Part shown: one piece after another, positions 1 to 40,067 of the stretch
How positions within the stretch are numbered: position 1 is the first letter of the stretch
Layout of the letters: each line of letters begins with the position of its first letter
Source of the DNA: Escherichia phage SonjaBuckley_Bas74
DNA: 43,096 nucleotides
Sequence record: PQ850627.1
Reading direction: 5' to 3' (one strand)
Notes under the pieces: model-generated
What the model saw: only the letters and a program-made list of their open reading frames with translations
Told to the model about the DNA's origin: nothing
Databases searched by the model: none
Position numbers and translations under genes: made by a program

Positions 1-549
1 GTGCGCTCTGATGGTCAGACGCATATGCAAGGGGATTCTATGAAGCTGAAACTTAAGCAGCCATCGCCAGAGGTGGTACAAGCTGCACATGAAGAAGCTG
101 TTAGCGCAAACCGTCGCCGTAAACGACCGCGCGGTAAACAGAGCCTTTATCAATCATCCCGTAATTCTGCGGCATTGTGGGACCCGGACTACTGTGACGC
201 GTTAATCGAGTTCTTCGACCGCACGTCGTGGGAGCTTGTGCCAACGTCTAAGGGTGACGAACGCCCACTGATTCAGGATAAGCCGCCGTCACTGGCCCGC
301 TTCGCCTTACACATCGGCGTCACTATCCCTATTATTAAGCTTTGGCTGCGTGAGATTCCCGCATTTGCAGAAGCCTGGGAGACAGCACAGGCGCTGGAAG
401 AGGCATACTTCACTGAAACGGGGGCCGCGGGCATCTCTGCTACGTTTGCCGCCGCGAAACTGGGCCTGAATAAAACAGTTGTCGCCGAAGAAGTACGCGA
501 CGAGCCAATCAGCGAAGTAACAATTAAGGTGGTGTCCGGTGAACGTTAA
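1..549 (+). CDS. terminase small subunit (frame open from window edge; likely start ATG at 40)
   Basis: ATG at 40 preceded by AAGGGGA SD; basic N-terminal stretch RRRKRPRGK and HTH-like segment; immediately upstream of and overlapping the large terminase ORF. Confidence 0.6.
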   Translation: MRSDGQTHMQGDSMKLKLKQPSPEVVQAAHEEAVSANRRRKRPRGKQSLYQSSRNSAALWDPDYCDALIEFFDRTSWELVPTSKGDERPLIQDKPPSLARFALHIGVTIPIIKLWLREIPAFAEAWETAQALEEAYFTETGAAGISATFAAAKLGLNKTVVAEEVRDEPISEVTIKVVSGER

Positions 550-1810
550 TATCACGGCAACGGAGCCGCAAGGCGCGTTTCTCGGTATGCATTGCAAGTT
601 TCCGGCATTCGTAGCTGGCTTCGGTACGGGTAAATCCGAAGTTATGTGCAACTCTGCACTACTCGACAGCATGGAAGGTGGTAGCGATTCTATCATCGCC
701 ATGTATGAGCCGACTTATGACCTGGTGCGCCTCATCCTTGCACCGCGTATGGAAGAAAAGCTCACCGACTGGGGTATCCGGTACAAATACAACAAGTCTG
801 ACAACATAATCTATACGTCTTCCGGACAATTTGGGGATTTTGTTCTGCGTACACTTGATAATCCAGCACGAATCGTTGGCTACGAATCGTTTCGTGCGAA
901 AATCGACGAGTTGGACACCCTTAACATGGAGCACGCCGAGCACGCGTGGAACAAAGTCATCGCCCGTAACCGCCAGTTGCCGCGGACATATAAACCTATT
1001 ACACCGAAACCTGCTAATACCGTTTCCGTGTTCACTACCCCGGAAGGATTCCGTTTCGTACATGACCGCTGGGTAGTCAAAAAGAATCCAGGCTACGAGA
1101 TGATTCAGGCGTCCACCCTGTCTAACCCGTTCCTGCCAGAAGATTATGTGCAGTCGTTACGCGACACATACCCAGGTCAGTTGATTGACGCCTACATCAA
1201 CGGCGAGTTCGTCAACCTGACGGCGGGGACTGTCTATTACGCCTATGACCGCAGGAAAAACAGCAGCCGCGAAACAATAAAACCAGGCGAGACTCTGTAT
1301 ATCGGGCAGGACTTTAACGTAGGCCACATGGCTAGTACAGTTTACGTGCAACGTGGCAAAGTCTGGCATGCAGTCGCCGAGTTGGTGGATATGTTCGATA
1401 CGCCCGATGTGGTGAGAGCCGTAACAGAGCGCTGGAAAAGTAAGGGCCACTATATCGTTATGTACCCCGACGCAAGCGGTAAAAACCGTAAAAGTAACAA
1501 CGCCAGCACATCTGATATTGCCCAGTTACAGCAGGCCGGCTTCGAAGTGCGCGCTAAATCGACAAACCCACAGGTTAAAGACCGCGTAGCGGCGATGAAT
1601 AAGGCGCTTGAATCTGGTATGGTCATGATTAATGAGCAGGCTTGCCCGGTTACCGCGCGATGCCTGGAGCAACAGGCTTACGACAAGAACGGCGAACCGG
1701 ATAAATCGGGTGGTGTGGACCACCAGAATGACGGGACCACATATCCCATCGCGTATGAAATGCCGATTCGCAAACCAGTTATTAACGTCCCGGTGACTTT
1801 CGCACTTTAA
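539..1810 (+). CDS. terminase large subunit
   Basis: GTG start with AAGGTGG SD; Walker A-like GFGTGKS near N-terminus; sits between small terminase and portal. Confidence 0.7.
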   Translation: MNVNITATEPQGAFLGMHCKFPAFVAGFGTGKSEVMCNSALLDSMEGGSDSIIAMYEPTYDLVRLILAPRMEEKLTDWGIRYKYNKSDNIIYTSSGQFGDFVLRTLDNPARIVGYESFRAKIDELDTLNMEHAEHAWNKVIARNRQLPRTYKPITPKPANTVSVFTTPEGFRFVHDRWVVKKNPGYEMIQASTLSNPFLPEDYVQSLRDTYPGQLIDAYINGEFVNLTAGTVYYAYDRRKNSSRETIKPGETLYIGQDFNVGHMASTVYVQRGKVWHAVAELVDMFDTPDVVRAVTERWKSKGHYIVMYPDASGKNRKSNNASTSDIAQLQQAGFEVRAKSTNPQVKDRVAAMNKALESGMVMINEQACPVTARCLEQQAYDKNGEPDKSGGVDHQNDGTTYPIAYEMPIRKPVINVPVTFAL

Positions 1811-1822
1811 GAGGATTATTCA

Positions 1823-3304
1823 ATGTTAACTATGAACGGTCAGAATCAGGGTGTTAAGACAAAACACCGGGAATGGCTGCATCACTTCGATAAATGGCAG
1901 AAGGTGCGCCACGCGCTGGAAGGTGACCTTATCCGCTATCTGCGCAACGTCGGGAAGAACGAGCCTGACCCTACCTACGCGGCACAGCGCCAGGAAGAAT
2001 ATGAGAATGGTGCTATCTGCTACAACTTCACTAAACGTACCCTTGCGGGGATGGTGGGGTCGGTGATGCGCAAAGACCCTGAACAGATTATCCCGCCTGA
2101 ACTGGAGTACCTGTTACGTAATGCAGACGGTTCAGGTGTCGGTCTGTGGCAGCACGCGCAGGACACGCTGATGGAGATTGACTCGGTAGGCCGTGGCGGG
2201 TTGCTGGTGGACGCGCCGGAGACAGCTGCGGCAACGGCAGCCGAACAGAACGCGGGGTTACTAAACCCGGTCATTGCATTCTACACTGCTGAGAACATCA
2301 TCAACTGGCGACTGACCCGCATCGGCTCAGTGAACCGTGTGACGATGGTCGTGTTACGTGAGGTGTGGGAATACTCAGAACCAAGTGCAGAGTTCGAAAC
2401 AAAGTTCGGTGAACAATACCGCGTTCTCGATTTGATTGACGGGCGCTACCGCCAGCGAATCTATCGCTTCGATGCCGAAGGTGGCGCACAGGATGAAGTA
2501 ATCGAAATCTTCCCGGAACTCGGCGAACAGTTGCGCGGTAAAATCCCGTTCACGTTCATTGGCGCAAGCAACAACGACGCCACTATAGACGATGCGCCTT
2601 TACTGCCGTTAGCTGAGCTAAATATAGGACACTTCAGAAATTCGGCCGATGTGGAAGAGGCCAGCTTTATAGTAGGTCAACCGACACTGTTCATTGCCCC
2701 CGGCGAGAACATGAGCATGGAGCAGTGGAAAGAAGCCAACCCACACGGCATACGCATGGGGTCGCGTTCAGGCCACAACATCGGCTCCGGCGGAAATGCG
2801 TTTCTGGTTCAGGCGGCGGAAACTAACCTCGCCAAACAGAATATGCTGGATAAAGAGAATCAGGCCATCCAGATTGGCGCGCAGCTTATCACCCCGACGC
2901 AGCAAATCACCGCGGAATCGGCCCGCCTGCAACGCGGCGCCGACACGTCAGTCATGGCAACAATAGCACGTAATGTAAGCATGGCGTATACCGATGCGTT
3001 GCGCTGGGTTGCGGGTATGCTTGGGCTTAGTGAAGATACTGAGATTGAGTTCAAGCTGAATATGGAATTCTTCCTGCAACCTATGACAGCTCAGGACCGC
3101 GCTCAGTGGATGGCGGATATTAACGCTGGCCTGCTACCCGCCACCGCTTACTATGCTGCGTTGCGCAAGGCAGGTGTGACTGACTGGACAGATGAGGACA
3201 TTCAGAACGCTATTGAAGACGCACCTCTGCCGTTGGGTTCTGTTGCTCAGGTAGCGGGAGAGATTCCGCAGTCGGCGCAGCAACAGGACACCACTCAGCA
3301 GTAA
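1823..3304 (+). CDS. portal protein
   Basis: 493 aa ORF with AAGAGGA SD directly after terminase; followed by intrinsic terminator; size and position typical of portal. Confidence 0.65.
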   Translation: MLTMNGQNQGVKTKHREWLHHFDKWQKVRHALEGDLIRYLRNVGKNEPDPTYAAQRQEEYENGAICYNFTKRTLAGMVGSVMRKDPEQIIPPELEYLLRNADGSGVGLWQHAQDTLMEIDSVGRGGLLVDAPETAAATAAEQNAGLLNPVIAFYTAENIINWRLTRIGSVNRVTMVVLREVWEYSEPSAEFETKFGEQYRVLDLIDGRYRQRIYRFDAEGGAQDEVIEIFPELGEQLRGKIPFTFIGASNNDATIDDAPLLPLAELNIGHFRNSADVEEASFIVGQPTLFIAPGENMSMEQWKEANPHGIRMGSRSGHNIGSGGNAFLVQAAETNLAKQNMLDKENQAIQIGAQLITPTQQITAESARLQRGADTSVMATIARNVSMAYTDALRWVAGMLGLSEDTEIEFKLNMEFFLQPMTAQDRAQWMADINAGLLPATAYYAALRKAGVTDWTDEDIQNAIEDAPLPLGSVAQVAGEIPQSAQQQDTTQQ

Positions 3305-3314
3305 GTTCACCTAT

Positions 3315-3336
3315 AGCCCCGAAAGGGGCTTTCTTA
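3315..3336 (+). terminator. intrinsic terminator after portal gene
   Basis: AGCCCC-GAAA-GGGGCT hairpin followed by TTCTT. Confidence 0.6.
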
Positions 3337-3373
3337 TAGTATGCTATTAACTTTAGCGCCACAGGGTTGATCT

Positions 3374-4417
3374 ATGAGCTTACTTACATCCCTAATCAGC
3401 CATCAGATATGGCTGCAACGCACCGCATCCGGTGAGGTGAAAGACCTCACGCCGTTCATTCAGGAGATAAGGGATGAAATCAAACGGCAGGTGCTGTTAT
3501 TCGGTGACGACGGTCGCAGCACTGCGCGACTGAATAAACTGTTACGCGACCTGGAAGAAGCACTAACCGGTATTACGGGTGACTGGCAAACAAAGCTAAC
3601 AGACGACCTTAAGGAACTGGCGGCGTACGAGGCTGAGTGGAACGTAAAGACACTGACCGCCAACGTAGACGCGGAATTTGTTACGCCTACCGCTGAGCAG
3701 GTATGGGCCGCTGCCGAGTTTCAACCATTATCATTGAGCGACAAGCCCGTTGATTTCACCAAGCTGATGTCTGGATGGGGCGAAACGGAAGTAGCACGTC
3801 TTGTAACTGGAGTTAAGATGGGCTTTGTGCAAGGTCAAACCACACGGCAGATTGTTAAGAATGTTGTTGGCGCTGGTGGACTAGCCGACATCTCAGAACG
3901 TAACGCGACTACGGTAATCCGCACCGCGCTGTCCCACGTATCCAACGAGGCCCGTAACGAGACGTACCGCCAGAACGACGACATCATCGAGAAGTACGAG
4001 TGGGTGTCAACGCTTGACAGCCGCACCAGTACGATTTGCAGGGTCAGAGACGGGATGACGTGGGAAATTGGTAAGGGGCCGATGCCCCCAGCCCATCCGA
4101 ACTGCCGGTCGTGCACGGCTCCGGTAATCAGTTCCGAGTTCGACTTCCTCGATAAAGGCGCAAAACGCGCGGCTAAAGGCGCGGAAGGTGGCACTCAGGT
4201 AAGCGCAGACACCACTTACTACGAGTTCCTTAAACAACAACCGGCGTGGTTTCAGGACCAGGCGCTCGGCCCGGTGCGAGGTAAGATTTTCCGTAACAGC
4301 GGTATATCGCCGGAAGAGTTTCGCGTAATATCTGTAGATGGTTTCGGGAATCCGCTCACGCTTAAGCAGATGGCGGAACTCGATAAACGTGTTGCTGATT
4401 ATCTGAAAGGGGAATAA
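3374..4417 (+). CDS. head morphogenesis protein (SPP1 gp7 / Mu F-like)
   Basis: 347 aa; C-terminal HPNCRSC motif characteristic of this family; position after portal. Confidence 0.65.
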   Translation: MSLLTSLISHQIWLQRTASGEVKDLTPFIQEIRDEIKRQVLLFGDDGRSTARLNKLLRDLEEALTGITGDWQTKLTDDLKELAAYEAEWNVKTLTANVDAEFVTPTAEQVWAAAEFQPLSLSDKPVDFTKLMSGWGETEVARLVTGVKMGFVQGQTTRQIVKNVVGAGGLADISERNATTVIRTALSHVSNEARNETYRQNDDIIEKYEWVSTLDSRTSTICRVRDGMTWEIGKGPMPPAHPNCRSCTAPVISSEFDFLDKGAKRAAKGAEGGTQVSADTTYYEFLKQQPAWFQDQALGPVRGKIFRNSGISPEEFRVISVDGFGNPLTLKQMAELDKRVADYLKGE

Positions 4418-6767: not shown

Positions 6768-7817
6768 ATGGCAATTACCACTATCGGCGATATCGTAACT
6801 GGCAACATCCCGGTCCTGGCGTCTTATATGACCGAGGACCCGGTAGAAAAAACCGCGTTCTTCCAGTCTGGTATTCTGACCCCGACCCCGTACGCTGCCG
6901 AGATTGCCCGCGGCCCGTCCAACGTCGCTAATATTCCTTTCTGGAAAGCGATTGATACCTCTATCGAGCCGAACTACTCGAACGACGTATACCAGGACAT
7001 CGCCACCCCGCGTAACGTGCAGACCGGCGAGATGATGGCGCGCGTTGCGTACCTGAACGAAGGTTTCGGTCAGGCGGATTTGACCGTTGAACTGACCAGC
7101 CAGAACCCGCTGCAATCCGTAGCGTCACGTCTGGATAACTTCTGGCAGCGTCAGGCACAACGCCGTCTGATTGCTACCGCGCTCGGGCTGTACAATGACA
7201 ACGTAGCCGCTACCGACGCATACCACGAGCAGAATGACATGGTAATCGACGTGTCTGCTACTCTGGGCTTCGATGCGGGCGCGTTCATCGACGCTACCCA
7301 GACTATGGGCGATGCTCTGATGGGCAACGGCGGTGAAGTGCTGGGGGCTATCGCGATGCATAGCTTCGTTTATGCGCAGGCACGTAAGCAGCAGCTTATC
7401 GACTTCATCCGTGACGCGGACAACAACACCATGTTCGCCACCTACCAGGGCTACCGCGTGATTGTTGACGACAGCATGACCGTAGTCGGCACTGACCAGA
7501 CCCGTAAGTTCATCTCTATTATCTTCGGTAACGGCGCTATCGGTTACGGTGAAGGTTCTCCGTCCAACCCGCTGGAATACGAGCGCGAAGCGTCTCGCGG
7601 TAATGGTGGTGGCGTTGAAACCCTGTGGACCCGTAAGACCTGGTTGCTGCACCCACTGGGCTACAGCTTCACCAGCGCAGTAATCACCGGCAACGGCACC
7701 GAGACTACCTCGCGCTCTGCTTCCTGGCAGGACCTGGCGAACGCCTCCAACTGGAACCGTGTTGTTGAACGTAAGCACGTACCGATCGCCTTCCTGGTAA
7801 CTGGTGTCAGGTCTTAA
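6768..7817 (+). CDS. major capsid protein
   Basis: 349 aa ORF with GAGGAA SD immediately after scaffold gene and followed by strong intrinsic terminator; size and position typical. Confidence 0.7.
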   Translation: MAITTIGDIVTGNIPVLASYMTEDPVEKTAFFQSGILTPTPYAAEIARGPSNVANIPFWKAIDTSIEPNYSNDVYQDIATPRNVQTGEMMARVAYLNEGFGQADLTVELTSQNPLQSVASRLDNFWQRQAQRRLIATALGLYNDNVAATDAYHEQNDMVIDVSATLGFDAGAFIDATQTMGDALMGNGGEVLGAIAMHSFVYAQARKQQLIDFIRDADNNTMFATYQGYRVIVDDSMTVVGTDQTRKFISIIFGNGAIGYGEGSPSNPLEYEREASRGNGGGVETLWTRKTWLLHPLGYSFTSAVITGNGTETTSRSASWQDLANASNWNRVVERKHVPIAFLVTGVRS

Positions 7818-24045: not shown

Positions 24046-25466
24046 TTCTTACCTCGTCTCTTCATGTAGTTAAGCAACTCTTCCTGTACCGATTTCTTCT
24101 CGTCGGTACGCGCGGCAACAACCTCGTCCAGCGTGTCTTTAGCGACTATGTGATAAAGGAACACCGGGCGCTCGTGCCCAGCTTGTTTCTGACGGACCGG
24201 GCCTATACGCTCGACAACCTGCAAATAGTGCTCAAGGTTCCAGCCTTGTGAGATGAATGCCAGATGATGTCCGCCGTCTTGTAAATTCAAACCATGGCCC
24301 GCTGACGCAGGATGTACGCATAAGATTTCTACTTCACCGCGGTTCCACGCTTCCATCTGCTTATTACCCCTGACACCTTTGGCAAAGGCCTGTGCTTGTG
24401 GGAATCGCTTAAGGATGCGCTCCAGTTCGTGCTTGAACTGATAGGCCACCAGTAACGGTGCCCCCTGTAACTCCTCAACAATGGACTCGAGCGCATCAAG
24501 TTTCGTGTCGTGCACTTTCTCCCATTCTTTGGTTGATTCGCCATCTGGCCCCGATACATACACGGCACCGGAGGCAATCTGTAGGCACTTCGACGTCTTC
24601 GCCGCAGCGTTAGCCGCTTCAACTTCTCCGCTTTCCAGTTCCGCGAATAACTTCTCCTCCATATCGATGTACGCCTGACGTGCTTTCTTCGGCAGGTCGA
24701 TTTCAACCGGCACAATAATCGGCGCTTCACACCCGAACCACTCGGCGGCGTCAATCGTGAGACTAATGTCCTTCATCTTCTGGTGAATTTCATTATCCGC
24801 ACCCGGGCGTGCGTGGTATTCACGGGCCATCGCAGATTTCCCTTTCTGTACCGAGTTAAACCAGCGGTCGGTGAATGCTGTGTACGATGACCCCAGGCGC
24901 TCGCCTGCGTCGATAAACCAGTTCTGCCCCCACAAGTCCTTGAGGCCGTTTGGTGACGGCGTGCCAGTCAGGTTAATGAAACGCTTAACTTTGCCAAATG
25001 CCACTTTACTAAGCGCCTTTGCCCTCTTGCTGCCGCCTGAACGGCTGCGGAATGACTTCAGTTTCGTGCTTTCATCGGCAACGATAACGGTAAAAGGCCA
25101 GTCGTCTTTGCCGTAGTAGTCAATCAACCACTCTATTACCTCATAGTTCGTGCACACCACGTTAGCGTCCGACTCCAGCGCCGCGATGCGGCGCTTCTCT
25201 GAACCGGTCGCGTCTACGACACGCAGACATGGGAAATTCCACTTAGTTTGTTCCGCCGGCCATGTGCCTGATGCAACGCGCAACGGGGCGAGGATTAACA
25301 CGCGGTCCTCTTCTGTAAGCTGCCCGTTGCGGAACAGTCGGTTTAATGTCCACAGTACGCTGCCAGTCTTCCCGGCGCCCATGCTCGCCCAAATATTACA
25401 GCGATGGTGCCGCAACATGAACGAAGTCATTAGCTTCTGGTATTCGCGCCTTTGAAACTTACTCAT
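24042..25466 (-). CDS. SNF2-like superfamily 2 DNA helicase
   Basis: Walker A GAGKTG, motif II VIVADESTKLK, motif III LTGTPSPNGL. Confidence 0.75.
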   Translation of the reverse strand: MSKFQRREYQKLMTSFMLRHHRCNIWASMGAGKTGSVLWTLNRLFRNGQLTEEDRVLILAPLRVASGTWPAEQTKWNFPCLRVVDATGSEKRRIAALESDANVVCTNYEVIEWLIDYYGKDDWPFTVIVADESTKLKSFRSRSGGSKRAKALSKVAFGKVKRFINLTGTPSPNGLKDLWGQNWFIDAGERLGSSYTAFTDRWFNSVQKGKSAMAREYHARPGADNEIHQKMKDISLTIDAAEWFGCEAPIIVPVEIDLPKKARQAYIDMEEKLFAELESGEVEAANAAAKTSKCLQIASGAVYVSGPDGESTKEWEKVHDTKLDALESIVEELQGAPLLVAYQFKHELERILKRFPQAQAFAKGVRGNKQMEAWNRGEVEILCVHPASAGHGLNLQDGGHHLAFISQGWNLEHYLQVVERIGPVRQKQAGHERPVFLYHIVAKDTLDEVVAARTDEKKSVQEELLNYMKRRGKK

Positions 25467-26253
25467 TTACGGCCCCTATGAACGCCTTTATAAATTCAGC
25501 GGCTACTTGCGGGACGATAGCATTGCCGTAACCGCGCAATCGTCCCACTCTGGCGGGTACCCCATTAGCCAGCGGGAATGCGCCGGGTTCAACTGGCCTG
25601 AATTTTCCATCCCGGCATCCGAGCCAGTCAGCATCTGACCAGAACCCGTTAGGCGGATTGGCTGTGTCAGAGATGCCTCTGTTTGCAGATTGTGGCCCCC
25701 GTTCCTGCCCTGATGGCCTGCTCCCGCCGAGTTGTTCGCACACGGTGTTGGCCAGTTGCTGCGCTCCGAAGAACAATCGATTCCTTTTGTGCGGTGCGCC
25801 GACGCTACAAGCTGGGAGTACGGCAAACCCGACGGCGTAGTCTTCTCTTTCCAGGTGAGTTTGTAAATCGCACATCCACGATTTTGCAATTGCTGCCGCA
25901 ACCTGCTCCCCAAAGATGACTGGAGGGTGGCACTCGCTGATGAGGTCGAGGAGCACAGGTGCGAGGTGTCTCTGGTCGAACTGTCCGAGTTGCTTTCCTG
26001 CCGTGCTAAACGGTTGGCAAGGCGGACTTCCCGTCCATATAGGCGTATCTTCAGAAACTCCCGCAAGTCTGAGCGCGAGAGGCCAGCCGCCGATACCCGC
26101 GAAAAAATGACACTGGGTGAACCCGTCAAGGTCTTCTGGCTTAACTTCGGTAATGCTTCTTTCATCTACAACTCCAAAAGGTATGTGACCCTGTTTTATC
26201 AACTCACGCAGCCACGCGGCTGCGCCTTTATCCCATTCGTTGTAATAGTTCAT
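25459..26253 (-). CDS. DNA (cytosine-5)-methyltransferase, short form
   Basis: FAGIGG (motif I), PPCQPFS (catalytic PCQ motif IV), [16 protein letters not shown]; only 264 aa. Confidence 0.6.
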
Positions 26254-26441
26254 TTCGCCACCAGAACTAACTCTTTACGCCCGAACGCCGTAACGTTACC
26301 GGTTACGTCTTCAATAACCAGTTTACCGTTCGACTCGACGAACACCGTATCAACGGCAACAGGACGACGGGTCTTAACGTTGAAAATCATGTCGCCTGGT
26401 ACGATGTCACGTGCTGGTTTGCGGTCATATTCGTGTTTCAT
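26250..26441 (-). CDS. hypothetical protein (63 aa)
   Basis: ATG with AAGGAA SD; preceded by TTGACA-N17-TATAGT promoter; ATGA coupling to methyltransferase. Confidence 0.5.
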   Translation of the reverse strand: MKHEYDRKPARDIVPGDMIFNVKTRRPVAVDTVFVESNGKLVIEDVTGNVTAFGRKELVLVAK

Positions 26442-26757
26442 TTCTAAATTCCTTATATTGTTGGGGTATGTGCTTACTATAATAGTCTGCTATTAGGGTG
26501 TCAATCTGTTTTATCGAACCAACGACAAAAACATTTGCGCCACGTTTACGTATACGCTCGTGTTCCCGTAGCTGGTGCGGGTCTGGCTTAGTGTTTTCGT
26601 CTTTCTTCACCTCGACGAACCAGACGATGCCGCCGGGTAGAATTGCCAGCAGGTCAGGAGCGCCTGAACGTCCTTCGTAGGAAAGTTTACGAACGAGGCC
26701 ACCAATGGCCTCGAATCGCTCTTTTGCGTATTTCTGGATGCGGCCCTCTTTAGTCAT
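26425..26757 (-). CDS. VRR-NUC domain nuclease
   Basis: GAPDLLAIL...VWFVEVKK...HQLREHERIRKRGANVFVV matches the VRR-NUC pattern (PD-(D/E)XK-type core). Confidence 0.6.
   Translation of the reverse strand: MTKEGRIQKYAKERFEAIGGLVRKLSYEGRSGAPDLLAILPGGIVWFVEVKKDENTKPDPHQLREHERIRKRGANVFVVGSIKQIDTLIADYYSKHIPQQYKEFRNETRI
26476..26504 (-). promoter_or_regulatory. promoter TTGACA-N17-TATAGT (internal to 3' end of VRR-NUC gene)
   Basis: Minus-strand reading TTGACACCCTAATAGCAGACTATTATAGT; perfect -35, near-consensus -10, 17-bp spacer. Confidence 0.5.
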
Positions 26758-26906
26758 GACCGCAGCATCCAGGTAAGGAAAACCCAGCCTAGAATGGCAA
26801 CACCGGCAAACTGAAAGAACAGGCCGTAACAGAACATAGCAGCTATTCCCGCACCGAGTAACAGTGCGAGCATGGTTACTATGGTCCTAAATACAAACAT
26901 TGTCAT
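26754..26906 (-). CDS. small hydrophobic membrane protein (50 aa)
   Basis: Uninterrupted frame; stop overlaps VRR-NUC start (ATGA); sequence almost entirely hydrophobic. Confidence 0.4.
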   Translation of the reverse strand: MTMFVFRTIVTMLALLLGAGIAAMFCYGLFFQFAGVAILGWVFLTWMLRS

Positions 26907-26988
26907 AATACGCACCCCTCACGTTTCGTATGCTCAATCCCGCAGCGCGGGCAGATTCGGCAGTCTTCTTCATAAAACCAGTAAATTT

Positions 26989-27120
26989 TCATTCCAGCAC
27001 CCACATATAAATTGCGATGAACATGCCCAATATGGCAACCATCATGCCGTATTGTCCCTCGTGACAGTAGACACCGGCGGCAAATCCCGCCAGTACCGCG
27101 ATAATCAGTTTACTTGGCAT
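26989..27120 (-). CDS. small hydrophobic membrane protein (43 aa)
   Basis: ATG with AAGGAGA SD; two hydrophobic segments. Confidence 0.4.
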   Translation of the reverse strand: MPSKLIIAVLAGFAAGVYCHEGQYGMMVAILGMFIAIYMWVLE

Positions 27121-27805
27121 CTCTACATTCTCCTTCAGGCCACCTATTAGGAAAAGACGGTATATGTGAAACTTCTCTCGCCGCTTTTATTCTTTTAATG
27201 GTGGGACCTATCTCCGTAACCATTTCAATGAATGTAAACCGGTGTCCTCTGGTAAGATTACATGTCTGACAACAAGAAACGCAGTTAGATACTATGTGCC
27301 CGCTTGTATTATCTATGCGGTCTACCCCGACTTTTGTAGTGCTTCCGCAATAATGGCATGGCTGTGATATTAGTTTAATAACGCTTTCCAGTGTTAAATC
27401 GCAGATAAGCCCTTTTCCTGAATCTGCTCTTTTGTATCCTAACAAAAGCGCGTACGCCCGCGTCCTTTGGTCCTTATTCACCAGTTCCCTGCGTTGCTTG
27501 TTGAGACACTCCCGGCAATCTTTCCTGATATGAGAGCCATTACTTTTATTTCCTTTCCTGAAGTTTTCCTCTGTTAAAGGTTTTACCTCCCCACACTTTC
27601 TGCATTTAACAGGCTTCCCAGTGAAAACATACCAAGGGCTTTCTCGTCTGGATTTACCTTGTAATTTAAGTTTTTCGTCATACTTTTCCTTCCTGTTAGC
27701 ATTTACACACTCTTTACACCAGCGTTGCAGCCCGAGGCGCGTTGACTTTGAAAAATACTCTGTAGTCGCCGGTTTATCTTCGCCGCATCTTGAACACTTT
27801 TTCAT
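27110..27805 (-). CDS. HNH homing-type endonuclease
   Basis: Cys pairs CSRCG, CKEC, CRKCG, CREC plus CHYCG...GVDRIDN...H core; ATG at 27805 with GGAG SD (ORF track TTG start at 27817); inserted between polymerase terminator and nuclease genes. Confidence 0.7.
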   Translation of the reverse strand: MKKCSRCGEDKPATTEYFSKSTRLGLQRWCKECVNANRKEKYDEKLKLQGKSRRESPWYVFTGKPVKCRKCGEVKPLTEENFRKGNKSNGSHIRKDCRECLNKQRRELVNKDQRTRAYALLLGYKRADSGKGLICDLTLESVIKLISQPCHYCGSTTKVGVDRIDNTSGHIVSNCVSCCQTCNLTRGHRFTFIEMVTEIGPTIKRIKAAREVSHIPSFPNRWPEGECRDAK

Positions 27806-27815
27806 TAATAACTCC

Positions 27816-27850
27816 AAAAAAAAATACCGACATAGCCATTATATCGGTAT
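27816..27850 (-). terminator. intrinsic terminator after DNA polymerase gene (minus strand)
   Basis: ATACCGA/TCGGTAT stem followed on the minus strand by a run of nine T. Confidence 0.7.
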
Positions 27851-27882
27851 TTACATTTTCTACAACGTATTTCCTAAATCTA

Positions 27883-30063
27883 CTACTTGGCGTATCTGTA
27901 CATTTCGCTACCTTCTGCTACAAGAGGGAACCCCTCCGCCCATTCCGGTAATTCACACATCAACCGCTCAAGCTCTGCAACATTGTATTCCGGTAAATCA
28001 GGTGTCTCGCAGATAATCTCATCGTGTACGTGAAGTACAATCGGGTAGCCGTTTGCTTCTACGTTCAGCAGGGCATTAGCCAGCAAATCACGGCACAATG
28101 CCTGAGTGCAGTTTTCCACCAGTTTACCCGAGTAGGTGTACTGGAACCCCCACTGACGGGTTAGCTGATTTTCGCCCTGGTACTTAATGCGCACGTTAGT
28201 AGACACTTTTCCATCTTCGTCTGTTTCTTTCGACACGCTCAACCCGACGCCCGGATAAGACATAACGCGACCCGACGGCAACGTCATGCGCAACCACCAG
28301 CCGGCGACTTTGTTGCCGTTGTTGTCTGTCTCTACGTTGCGCGAAAACTTAACCCCCCTAGGCCCCGCGGTGAACTCTTTACCTGGATTGCGGATAGCGG
28401 CCATAGCTGCGTCTTCAATATCTCGCCAGAAAGCTACTGTTTCAGGGTGTGACTCTCGCCACATACGCTTGATAGCGTCACAGGTACGCCACACTTTCTT
28501 ATCAAGAATATACGATGGTCGGTCATCCTTCTCCCCGGGTCGCGGCGGTCGCTTGGCTTCCTGAATACGTGCCCATTCATAGCCGCGTGCAGTAGCCGCC
28601 CAGATGTGGTCCGGGAAAGTACCGTCCATTGTTTTTGACATATCAACAAGGTCAAGTCCGAGGTTCTTAGCAAACTGAACGAAAGCGCCAACACCACCAG
28701 CGTAGCCGAGGCCAAGCTCGCAGGCTTTACCAATCTGGCGCAAGTCTTTGCGTTCCTTCTTAATGTAATCCGGCTCCATGCCGAACATCTTACCCGCGGT
28801 TACACAGTAAATGTCCAGCCCGGCGCGGAACGTATCTAGCGCGGTTTCTTCGCCTGCCAGCCACGCAAGCCCCCGACCTTCAACGTTAGAGTAATCGGCG
28901 ACGACAAACTTTTTTCCGGCTTCCGGGATAATGCAGCTACGCACCGTCGATGCCGTTAGCTTAGCGACATCGAAACGGCGATGCGCGCGGCCCTTAAGTA
29001 ACGCTGAAATACCTTTATCCAGTTCATCATCGTGATAGTACCCACGCGCGAGGTTCTGCGGCTGAAATCCTTTACCGGCAAATCGTAATGTACGCTTGGC
29101 TCCGCCGTACTGAATGCAACCACGACGGCGGTCGTCCGACGAGCGCCCTAACAGCAGCGGGTTATATTTCGTTGACGCTGTGGACGCGGCCCCGAGGCGC
29201 ATTTCGATAATCGTGCGTGCGTCGTCCGGTAAATCATCATCCGCCAACAGGTCGTTAAGCGTAGACTTCTGCGCGTTGTGGATGCGGTGCGCTGGTGCAA
29301 GTTCACGCAGAATCGGCAGGAAGTCTTTACCAGTAAGCGAGCCGCCGTATTTGCGCTGTGCTTCTTCCTGTAGCTGGGCCTTGTGTTTTTCCACGGCTTC
29401 AATCGCGGCTTCCGCCAGCGTCACATCAACCTTAAACCCACGGTCGTTAATCAACTGGTCCAGTTCCAGTACACGGTCTTCGAACTCGGAGTTACCCCAA
29501 CGCGGCAGCTTATGGAAGACTTCACGCATCGCAGTGATGTCGCTCACGGCGTACCTGATGAACATCGCCCACTCGTCAGGGTGAGTTTCTGCGGTGTAGC
29601 GGCGGATTTTGTAGTTCTTCGGCGTCGGTTTAGAGAAACGCTTAATCAGAGCCTTGCCGCGTTTATCTTTCGCGTTGTCTGCAGACACGCCCAGCACTTC
29701 GCACAGCGCATCAAGAGAACCCGGCAGCGCGTGACGGAACGCCCAAATCATAGTATCAATGGTGTTACTTACCGGAATATCAAAGTCCCAGCAGTGTTTC
29801 ATGATTAGGCGATCGAAAAGTCCACCGTTGTGCCACACCATCTTGATGCGGCTGTTGGGCTTAACAAGGCGGCGCAGTGCGCGGTGTAAATCCCCCGGCA
29901 TGTCGCTGCCGTCGGTGCAATCCCATACCCGCACAGGTTCGTCGTCAAAAGCATATGTACAGATAAGCACTTCGGTTGACGGGTGTTCGGCGTAAGCGTA
30001 AGAACCGACTTTCTTCAAATCGGCTTCTGAGAATGTTTCAAAGTCTAAGAACAGGTAACTCAT
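27883..30063 (-). CDS. DNA polymerase I family (family A) with N-terminal 3'-5' exonuclease domain
   Basis: N-terminal FLDFETFS exonuclease motif; C-terminal RQIGKACELGLGYAGG and VLHVHDEIICE polymerase motifs; 726 aa. Confidence 0.85.
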   Translation of the reverse strand: MSYLFLDFETFSEADLKKVGSYAYAEHPSTEVLICTYAFDDEPVRVWDCTDGSDMPGDLHRALRRLVKPNSRIKMVWHNGGLFDRLIMKHCWDFDIPVSNTIDTMIWAFRHALPGSLDALCEVLGVSADNAKDKRGKALIKRFSKPTPKNYKIRRYTAETHPDEWAMFIRYAVSDITAMREVFHKLPRWGNSEFEDRVLELDQLINDRGFKVDVTLAEAAIEAVEKHKAQLQEEAQRKYGGSLTGKDFLPILRELAPAHRIHNAQKSTLNDLLADDDLPDDARTIIEMRLGAASTASTKYNPLLLGRSSDDRRRGCIQYGGAKRTLRFAGKGFQPQNLARGYYHDDELDKGISALLKGRAHRRFDVAKLTASTVRSCIIPEAGKKFVVADYSNVEGRGLAWLAGEETALDTFRAGLDIYCVTAGKMFGMEPDYIKKERKDLRQIGKACELGLGYAGGVGAFVQFAKNLGLDLVDMSKTMDGTFPDHIWAATARGYEWARIQEAKRPPRPGEKDDRPSYILDKKVWRTCDAIKRMWRESHPETVAFWRDIEDAAMAAIRNPGKEFTAGPRGVKFSRNVETDNNGNKVAGWWLRMTLPSGRVMSYPGVGLSVSKETDEDGKVSTNVRIKYQGENQLTRQWGFQYTYSGKLVENCTQALCRDLLANALLNVEANGYPIVLHVHDEIICETPDLPEYNVAELERLMCELPEWAEGFPLVAEGSEMYRYAK

Positions 30064-39186: not shown

Positions 39187-39390
39187 ATGGTACAGAGATA
39201 TTCTAAGTATGGGTCCGACAACCATTTCATTGACCGCCACGGGAAGTGGGTTAAGTTTGAGGACTACCAGAATCTTGACCTAAAGCTGTTGGAAGTTGAA
39301 GCCGAGTTACAGAAATACAAGGACCAGTTCCCGGATTACGTCGAGTGCGCGAACTGTGGGTCAGTTACACATGTGGGAGGGGTGGAGTAA
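39187..39390 (+). CDS. hypothetical protein (67 aa)
   Basis: ATG with CAGGAGA SD; CANCG near C-terminus. Confidence 0.45.
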   Translation: MVQRYSKYGSDNHFIDRHGKWVKFEDYQNLDLKLLEVEAELQKYKDQFPDYVECANCGSVTHVGGVE

Positions 39391-39683
39391 TGTCGTTAGC
39401 AACTGACATCCTGAAACGAAGCGGCCTTGCGCCGCTGTCACCGAGAGCGAAGACACGTATACACAAGCGTCGCCGTAACGTGCTGTACCCTGAGATTCAG
39501 GCCAGACGCAAAGTTGTCCGCGCCTGTGGATTCCAGAACGGGAAGGCCGTGAATCTGGGTGAGTTCAAAACACAGGAACGCGCAGCTATCGCTAATCGGT
39601 TATTTAATTACTGGAAATCGCTGGGGTATGAAGATATTCCGACGAAACCGCAGAGACGACAATACATCTGGCGTCATAAATAA
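39390..39683 (+). CDS. AP2-like DNA-binding domain protein (putative)
   Basis: ATG with GGGAGGGGTGGAG SD; GFQNGKAVNLGEFKTQERAAIANRLFNYW resembles the AP2 domain pattern common in phage HNH-associated proteins. Confidence 0.4.
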   Translation: MSLATDILKRSGLAPLSPRAKTRIHKRRRNVLYPEIQARRKVVRACGFQNGKAVNLGEFKTQERAAIANRLFNYWKSLGYEDIPTKPQRRQYIWRHK

Positions 39684-39758
39684 ACCGTTATTAGGATAAT
39701 TCCTACCCGTGGTATCCTCCAGTTACTGCATACTTAATACGCACCTGGAGGATTCATC

Positions 39759-40067
39759 TTGGATAAATTTACTGAAACAGTGACAGGCTGGCTTCTGGCA
39801 GCCGCACTAGCTGGTGGGGTAATCGGACTACGACAACATAAGTCCGCTATTTCCGGCCCTATCGACGGATTCTGCTTTATTGCAACTGGCTTCACTTGCG
39901 CCGTATTTGGCGCGCCTCTCGCCGCTCAATGGTTCGGTATTACCGGAGAGCGCGAGATAGCTGGCCTCGGATTCATCATCGCAATTCTCTGGATGCCCAT
40001 CTATTCCCGTCTCTCCGGTATCGTCGCCGGAGAATACATCGCACGTCGAGGAGGCACAGATGAATGA
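39759..40067 (+). CDS. holin (three predicted TMDs)
   Basis: Apparent TTG start 6 nt after GGAGGA SD; three hydrophobic helices and charged C-terminus; directly upstream of endolysin cassette. Confidence 0.55.
   Translation: MDKFTETVTGWLLAAALAGGVIGLRQHKSAISGPIDGFCFIATGFTCAVFGAPLAAQWFGITGEREIAGLGFIIAILWMPIYSRLSGIVAGEYIARRGGTDE

Follow-up and report, generated by a model that had tools for sequence, protein, structure and literature searches.

A PacI-like nuclease gene inserted at the polymerase 3' junction of Escherichia phage SonjaBuckley_Bas74: a probable free-standing homing cassette

The DNA of Escherichia phage SonjaBuckley_Bas74 (PQ850627.1; 43,096 nucleotides, the whole of which we call the window) carries on its minus strand, directly behind the DNA polymerase gene, a 773-base-pair insert (27110..27882) made up of a leader, a nuclease open reading frame (ORF) and, at the right-hand end, a remnant of the polymerase tail. 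The limits of the insert are those of the gap in its alignment with phages Bas71 and K1G. The nuclease ORF (27110..27805, minus), recognized from the reading frame itself, annotation, homologues and a structural model, encodes 231 residues, in which two zinc ribbons and a helical linker precede a beta-beta-alpha-metal domain resembling that of the restriction enzyme PacI. Judging from the sequence comparisons set out below, we think it probable that this cassette is a free-standing homing endonuclease gene that targets the 3' junction of the polymerase gene. An earlier note on this DNA had pointed to a stand-alone HNH endonuclease gene between the polymerase and nuclease genes. That ORF is real, with the addition that it is on the minus strand and runs over 27110-27805 from an ATG, and it does follow the polymerase gene directly; the VRR-NUC nuclease gene on its other side lies beyond three small ORFs.

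How common is the gene among related phages? A 2-kb stretch around it matches 441 phage records, almost all of them Guernseyvirinae (Escherichia Kagunavirus and Salmonella Jerseyvirus). When a carrier is defined among these as a record with at least 80% query coverage, three of the 441 qualify, namely Bas73, Bas72 and KMB35, and the gene is missing in about 99% of the relatives. A tblastn search found copies at least 99% identical in exactly these three phages, and scans of IMG/VR added one further contig with the gene. In Bas71 and K1G the entire stretch is one clean alignment gap. At this empty site the polymerase ends in ...GAGATGAAGCGTTATGCCAAGTAA, an ATG within which starts an ORF of 43 residues, so that the two genes overlap by 11 nucleotides; the identical empty junction is present in four Guernseyvirinae, Bas71, K1G and phiWAO78-1 (Kagunavirus) and L223 (Salmonella Jerseyvirus). 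The insert splits, between ...CGTTATGCCAAGTAA and ACTGATTATCG..., a sequence that is continuous in the gene-less relatives. The earlier note had suggested aligning related genomes, and had named uniform presence with no insertion signature as the outcome that would count against an insertion; the alignment gives three records in 441, a clean insertion signature and an exact empty site, and the proposed insertion at this junction survives.

The borders of the insert are marked by a direct repeat, which a repeat search returned as an exact core, GCCAAGTA on the gene strand, at a spacing of 773. The left copy, also seen in the alignment, is at 27884..27897 and reads TACTTGGCGTATCT on the plus strand; the right copy, at 27111..27124, includes the old polymerase stop TAA, now the nuclease stop, together with the ATG of the 43-residue ORF. 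The 3' end of the nuclease ORF reads into the polymerase-tail remnant and stops at the old TAA, and the remnant provides the ATG of the 43-residue ORF, which in the window overlaps the nuclease stop by 11 nucleotides. The nuclease ORF has taken over the old stop and the overlapping start of the next gene, and the translational coupling downstream is therefore kept. Residues 219-231, the last 13 of the nuclease (...WPEGECRDAK; 27113..27151, minus), are disordered in the structural model, with a predicted local distance difference test score (pLDDT) below 50, which is consistent with reading into the polymerase remnant, and this tail differs from the ...YETGETK ends of the homologues in L009, L010 and L013. 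In a search of 26700-28300 against Rfam neither a group I intron nor any other RNA reached threshold, so the insert is not an intron.

On the other side of the insert, the polymerase in the window keeps its full-length C-terminus despite a recoded tail. The last ten codons (27886..27915, minus) specify EGSEMYRYAK, where the gene-less relatives have EGAEMKRYAK, and about 10 differences fall in the roughly 33 nucleotides beside the junction, with near-identity further upstream. The recoding removes the internal ATG and changes the TAA stop to TAG (27883-27885), which is followed by a second in-frame TAG. The carrier allele, then, has the putative target junction split and the last ten polymerase codons recoded, and recoding is found again in Dhillonvirus. 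An exact 23-nucleotide pattern taken from the recoded tail occurs in IMG/VR only on the contig that also carries the gene.

Several signs of mobility accompany the insertion. The insert has a G+C content of 41.4%, where the polymerase gene has 53.6% and the window as a whole 50.6%, and G+C at third codon positions (GC3) is 0.40 in the nuclease gene versus 0.59 in the polymerase gene; in five lineages, all that were examined, GC3 of the nuclease gene is below that of the neighbouring polymerase gene. In the four carriers the insert, together with the final 35 nucleotides of the polymerase gene, is 99.9-100% identical, while identity falls to 91-94% over the adjacent 480 nucleotides of that gene, and does so even for the window and Bas73. 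This near-identity of the cassette beside divergent polymerase sequence places a recombination boundary right at the element. Relative to Bas73, polymerase positions 27921-28400 are 94% identical, as against at least 99.5% for every other block compared within 25460-29900; Bas71 is equally distant over 27921-28400. As the alignments read, this segment is a recombination patch abutting the element. In phages, genes for homing endonucleases are known to cluster beside those for polymerases and where recombination boundaries lie (PMC10448857). Bas71, which lacks the gene, resembles the window in these flanks as closely as the carriers do, and for this reason the carriers do not look like a simple clade.

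What kind of nuclease is encoded? The protein has 16 cysteines, among them six CxxC pairs (C4/7, C30/33, C68/71, C97/100, C150/153 and C179/182), which bears out the several zinc-finger-like cysteine pairs described earlier. Zinc ribbon 1 (residues 1-47; 27665..27805, minus) has the invariant cysteines C4, C7, C30 and C33 and is built of strands and a helix in the model. Zinc ribbon 2 (residues 65-112; 27470..27613, minus), with the invariant cysteines C68, C71, C97 and C100, is a duplicate of it in sequence and model; the two form an internal repeat with 44% identity (E 1e-9), and distant family members of 160-185 residues have one ribbon only. The predicted catalytic core occupies residues 147-213 (27167..27367, minus) and includes C150/C153, D162-R163-I164-D165, G169-H170, N174, C179/C182 and N183. 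In a family alignment of 32 sequences the catalytic and zinc columns, C150, C153, C179 and C182 included, are near-invariant. The AlphaFold model built from the 32-sequence alignment has a mean pLDDT of 88. It predicts a beta-beta-alpha-metal fold with metal-binding Asp and Asn, and the protein would have three Cys4 zinc sites and two tandem zinc-ribbon modules. Homologues reaching E 1e-153, purifying selection (a ratio of nonsynonymous to synonymous substitution rates, dN/dS, of 0.04-0.09) and the model's pLDDT of 88 together make the ORF more than a chance reading frame.

The relationship to PacI emerges from profile comparison. A search of the PDB with the single sequence gave weak matches only, and the family profile was needed to find PacI, which at E 1.6e-9 is the closest solved structure and, by sequence profile and fold, the best solved relative. 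The nuclease motif G-V-D-R-I-D-N-T-S-G-H-x3-N-x4-C-x2-C-N is matched in PacI by G-V-D-R-S-D-S-F-E-G-Y-x3-N-x4-C-x2-C-N. Where the first beta strand ends and the canonical catalytic His would be expected, the nuclease has Arg163 of D-R-I-D, as in PacI. PacI itself functions without this His; its omega-loop Tyr has been placed as the general base, with the metal held by Asp and Asn (PMC5714182, PMC4081073). In the omega-loop column the nuclease and its close relatives have His170, and the distant members (P0020-P0032) have Tyr.

Is this, then, an HNH endonuclease? The best PHROG family is phrog_1035, labelled 'endonuclease VII' (E 2e-29), whereas Pfam and NCBIfam gave nothing significant and no HNH model of Pfam (at E<=1) or NCBIfam matches the protein, so that the assignment depends on PHROG, fold and profile evidence. 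The earlier HNH call holds as regards the superfamily, the enzyme being PacI-like with a beta-beta-alpha-metal core; it does not hold for canonical Pfam HNH, and Arg replaces the catalytic His. Pfam scans of six other family members and of P0033, which is a zinc ribbon only, returned just one sub-threshold match to PF01844 (HNH). Two relatives have a precomputed Pfam accession, PF27269, that our local Pfam scan did not return for them. An exhaustive profile search matched 68,269 cluster representatives at E<=0.001, from which we conclude that the domain is very common; 1,723 of them match at E<=1e-30, and many of the matches contain two to five tandem matched stretches in proteins of up to 1070 residues. 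In our view the label 'endonuclease VII', as well as the one GenBank label 'restriction endonuclease', is probably wrong and deserves correction.

Homologues in other phages occupy the same position. Proteins 60-64% identical occur in three metagenomic lineages, and proteins 49% identical occur in Dhillonvirus (SO-1 gp37, Gluttony and others), in every case immediately 3' of a family-A polymerase gene; these lineages have in common a module of exonuclease, SSB, polymerase, small ORFs, VRR-NUC and helicase. Within Dhillonvirus the gene is sporadic (26 of 158 records), and the carriers have a recoded polymerase tail in which the changes are mostly synonymous. Dhillonvirus non-carriers have either an empty site, with the polymerase stop overlapping the start of VRR-NUC, or a different ORF of 63 residues. 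The latter, which is unrelated to the nuclease, is a third allele at the post-polymerase junction in many Dhillonviruses (for instance phage UDS3lw, L016 840-1031). In the T1-like phage ESCO41 a relative with 36% identity lies between two tail genes; about 13 relatives lack it. Because nuclease and polymerase divergence are of the same order between lineages, the association of this nuclease with the polymerase family is old, though the Kagunavirus copies spread recently. Sodalis phage SO-1 (L005) also has, in its polymerase gene, a group I intron with an HNH gene of its own (246-3434), and behind the methylase there is a third small HNH gene (6972-7295); with these besides, its replication module can be said to collect several nuclease genes.

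The cassette seems to bring its own expression signals. A hairpin of 13 pairs, counting A-T extensions (27822..27852, minus), is followed by a run of nine T residues (27816-27824); it was identified by a terminator scan, as an inverted repeat and by RNA folding (z = -3.0), and it begins, at 27852, 30 nucleotides past the PolA stop codon. All six cassettes examined have a stable hairpin and a U-run before the Shine-Dalgarno sequence, with differing stem sequences. Since gene-less relatives are without a terminator at this place, the terminator is a feature of the cassette and not the polymerase's own. The strong terminator that had been described in front of the HNH gene is thus present as hairpin and T run, and what falls is its designation as the polymerase terminator, the element being inside the insert and absent from the gene-less relatives. 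The Shine-Dalgarno sequence ascribed to the gene is likewise there: GGAG (27812..27815, minus; read from the sequence), with a spacer of six nucleotides to the ATG at 27805. The computed ORF list has 27110..27817 from a TTG; the ATG at 27805 is the better start, and is the one annotated in Bas73. In one homologous cassette (L010 3469-3537) the gene call P0005, of 253 residues, begins within the leader and translates the hairpin region; going by the other cassettes, its true start is probably the methionine of MKFCSRC.

Might transcription also start within the leader? A candidate sigma-70-type promoter, TTGTAG-N16-TATAAT (27838..27865, minus), which we propose with low confidence, has its -10 box inside the hairpin. 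The element occurs once in the window, with none expected in shuffled sequence, and a like arrangement (TTGTAG or TTGCAG, 16-17 nucleotides, TATAAT or TATTGT) recurs in the three closest cassettes, L009, L010 and L013. Just past the polymerase stop, a leader block AAAT(A/G)CGTTG(T/C)AG (27860-27872, minus) is kept in four cassettes despite their diverged stems, and could be a promoter -35 region or a protein-binding site. As a phage-wide motif the block, AAATRCGTTGYAG, was considered and rejected, its exact occurrence being confined to the cassette, once in the window. The leader (27815-27882, minus) also gives a full-length Rfam match, below threshold, to the enterobacterial small RNA STnc240 (E 0.04-0.22; its 27 bits compare with a gathering score of 55). 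AUUUAG..AAAUACG is common to both, as is an ACCGA/UCGGU hairpin with a U-run, and the match may be a mere terminator resemblance.

How would such a cassette move? In a mixed infection the enzyme would cut gene-less genomes at or near the junction of the polymerase 3' end and the 43-residue ORF. Repair of the break from a cassette-bearing genome would give the recipient a copy of the cassette along with a short piece of flank, namely the recoded tail of the polymerase gene, and the carrier genome would be immune, its own site being interrupted and recoded. Catalysis is expected to follow the PacI scheme, in which D162 and N183 would hold one metal, with H170 of the omega loop standing in, as general base, for the beta-strand His that is missing (R163 in the nuclease). 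The cassette terminator would limit read-through from the polymerase gene. More speculatively, transcripts started from a promoter whose -10 box is inside the hairpin would be without the 5' arm, and would so escape termination; such transcripts might also feed the downstream genes that lost the upstream transcript. A broader proposal, to which we give rather less than even weight, is that PacI-like nucleases include a distinct and uncharacterised class of phage homing enzymes, with omega-loop His/Tyr catalysis, tandem ribbons that lengthen the recognition site, and self-insulating cassettes having a promoter inside the terminator hairpin, this lineage having specialised on the 3' ends of family-A polymerase genes across several siphophage genera.

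A number of observations weigh against homing. Mosaicism is general in Kagunavirus genomes; stretches of 100% identity also occur away from the gene, so the cassette could owe its spread to ordinary recombination. Purifying selection on the gene is strong (dN/dS 0.086 for SO-1 versus Gluttony and 0.038 for L010 versus L013), which is unlike a purely selfish, decaying element and suggests that the gene may benefit the phage. The recoded polymerase tail could be plain donor sequence instead of selected immunity. Across lineages the nuclease diverges about in step with the polymerase (polymerase 68-75% identity, nuclease 60-82%), and parallel divergence would also fit a long vertical association with frequent loss. 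PacI, moreover, is a homodimeric restriction enzyme with a short site and not a homing enzyme. As to the leader, a sigma-70 promoter scan did not report the TTGTAG/TATAAT element, which was below its threshold, and the element is not conserved in the Dhillonvirus cassettes. One might suppose that the gene is an accessory replication or recombination nuclease, for instance one that processes replication or recombination intermediates or degrades host DNA, which would be old, vertically inherited, often lost and sometimes moved by ordinary recombination. The kept post-polymerase position in five lineages at 49-64% identity speaks for such a history, as do the parallel divergence, the low dN/dS (0.04-0.09) and the general mosaicism. 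We nevertheless think it unlikely. The distribution, 3 of 441 and 26 of 158 records, would call for very many independent clean deletions, each of them restoring the overlap of polymerase and downstream ORF; identity of the cassette is 99.9% although the sequence immediately beside it differs by 6-9% between backgrounds; G+C content and GC3 are atypical in every lineage; and family members occur at unrelated loci in other phages.

Could the enzyme instead be a weapon of the PacI type, directed at host or competitor-phage DNA, with the phage's own DNA protected by the C5-cytosine methyltransferase encoded nearby (25459-26253, minus), much as in a restriction-modification pair? PacI is the closest solved structure, one GenBank record does say 'restriction endonuclease', and the four carriers share a methylase allele at 99.5% identity although the intervening DNA is only 89% identical in two of them. 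The same allele, at 99% identity or above, is nonetheless present in nuclease-free phages such as NTEC3, Bas70, 590B and DUEC01, and every relative has a methylase, with or without the nuclease, so a dependence on the neighbouring methylase allele finds no support. The addition of two zinc ribbons points to a longer and asymmetric site, PADLOC returned no defence-system match, and protection by methylation would leave unexplained a site-splitting insertion and a recoded polymerase tail in two genera. As we read it, the genomic context argues against a classical restriction role, and we regard such a pair as improbable. Still smaller is the chance of a Holliday-junction resolvase of the endonuclease VII type, as annotated in Bas72 and Bas73. 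The best PHROG label and GenBank agree on that name, and both proteins belong to the wider beta-beta-alpha-metal superfamily. The Endo VII/DHHRN group, however, is defined by DHDH, its first His invariant, between CX2-4C and CX2C (PMC6083498), and with DRID in place of that motif and its required first His we reject the identity. Least probable of all is a terminase-associated HNH packaging protein like HK97 gp74, a role that many siphophage HNH proteins have (PMC3592412). On motif, fold or position, neither the role of resolvase nor that of terminase partner holds up.

The wider setting of the cassette is that of a Kagunavirus. The 441-record match, the best match for 26400-28400 (Escherichia phage GertrudWoker_Bas73, 98.5% identity) and a regional gene order that agrees with the annotated Bas73 genome identify the window as a K1G-like Kagunavirus genome. 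The polymerase gene (27883..30063, minus) encodes a PolA of 726 residues, which matches Pfam DNA_pol_A at E 2.6e-15 and is annotated as a DNA polymerase in Bas73, KMB35 and K1G. Following the nuclease ORF on its 3' side are three small ORFs, among them the membrane-type ORF of 43 residues (26989..27120, minus; phrog_10404, E 8e-32), then the VRR-NUC nuclease gene (26425-26757, minus), a small ORF, the C5-methylase gene and a SNF2-type helicase gene. An alternative-frame ORF of 220 residues (25503-26165) overlaps the C5-methylase gene, and K1G has a second 'methyltransferase' annotated there.

We note also an ORF of 97 residues (39390..39683, plus) that had been described as AP2-like and as a possible partner of the nuclease. 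It is outside the element, is the counterpart of Bas73_0067, annotated 'hypothetical protein', and matches phrog_9632; its PHROG families carry no assigned function. The ORF is real and conserved. Its AP2 character stands on less: it had no Pfam family at E<=1, no NCBIfam match and no PADLOC match, and its model (overall pLDDT 69) has a confident beta-hairpin and helix at residues 43-77 with weak AP2 fold similarity. The profile searches that had been suggested thus returned no Pfam (E<=1) or NCBIfam model of HNH for the nuclease or of AP2 for this ORF. The two genes are 12 kb apart, and the ORF is a common Kagunavirus gene present in nuclease-free phages such as K1ind2 and fKuEco01; on this distribution we reject the proposed pairing with the nuclease. 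In Bas73 (PQ850603 40115-40555) a 'peptidase HslV family protein' gene lies between the 97-residue ORF and the holin genes. The window (about 39683-39759) is without it, and the 97-residue ORF runs nearly straight into a holin-like ORF.

What would a homing role mean? That free-standing homing endonuclease genes drive phage mosaicism is known, and another such gene is no surprise; in kind, the cassette would be an ordinary free-standing homing gene of the HNH superfamily beside a polymerase gene. Its modest novelty is in the combination of a PacI-type catalytic domain with duplicated zinc ribbons, a terminator of its own, and near-isogenic carrier and non-carrier phages. In the literature we found no description of this nuclease gene or of PacI-like homing enzymes. 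The carriers Bas73 and Bas72 and the near-isogenic non-carriers Bas71 and Bas70 belong to one public collection, growing on E. coli K-12 with restored O16 O-antigen, and because these natural partners exist, homing by a PacI-type nuclease is directly testable. If activity is confirmed, a homing role would extend to a His-Me subfamily so far known only from one restriction enzyme, and would account for the recombination breakpoint that these phages have at the 3' end of the polymerase gene, a point of some relevance since Kagunaviruses serve as phage-engineering chassis.

Among known systems, the cassette as a genetic element can be set beside the free-standing T4-type genes for MobE and SegF/SegG ('intronless homing'). 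Those are likewise stand-alone nuclease genes beside essential genes of DNA metabolism, sporadic in occurrence, with altered flanks and adjacent recombination boundaries (PMC2790892, PMC10448857). The differences are that Mob enzymes are HNH_3 and Seg enzymes GIY-YIG, that homing is proven there and proposed here, and that the present cassette has a terminator directly upstream and a 3' end fused to a remnant of the upstream gene. The IPA-HNH homing endonucleases of ICP1-like phages are also often found beside DNA polymerase genes (29% of neighbourhoods; PMC10448857), and theirs is the pairing meant in the earlier note. They join an HNH domain at the N-terminus to an AP2 domain at the C-terminus in one protein, whereas in the nuclease the putative DNA-binding modules are the N-terminal zinc ribbons. 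F-CphI and the DHHRN (Endo VII-motif) homing endonucleases are alike in having a zinc-bound beta-beta-alpha-metal core flanked by CxxC, in the label 'endonuclease VII' and in being free-standing phage genes; they have an invariant DHDH, where the nuclease has DRID and the defining His is absent. Nearest in structure is R.PacI (PDB 3ldy/3m7k; His-Me finger group 20, Jablonska et al. 2017), which shares the Cys4 sites at the active site and the N-terminal CxxC...CxxC ribbon, metal binding in the nuclease being predicted. R.PacI has Tyr where the nuclease has His170, and it has one ribbon in 142 residues, as against two ribbons and a helical linker in 231. R.PacI is a bacterial restriction enzyme, a homodimer that cuts TTAATTAA, whereas the nuclease gene is a sporadic phage insert.

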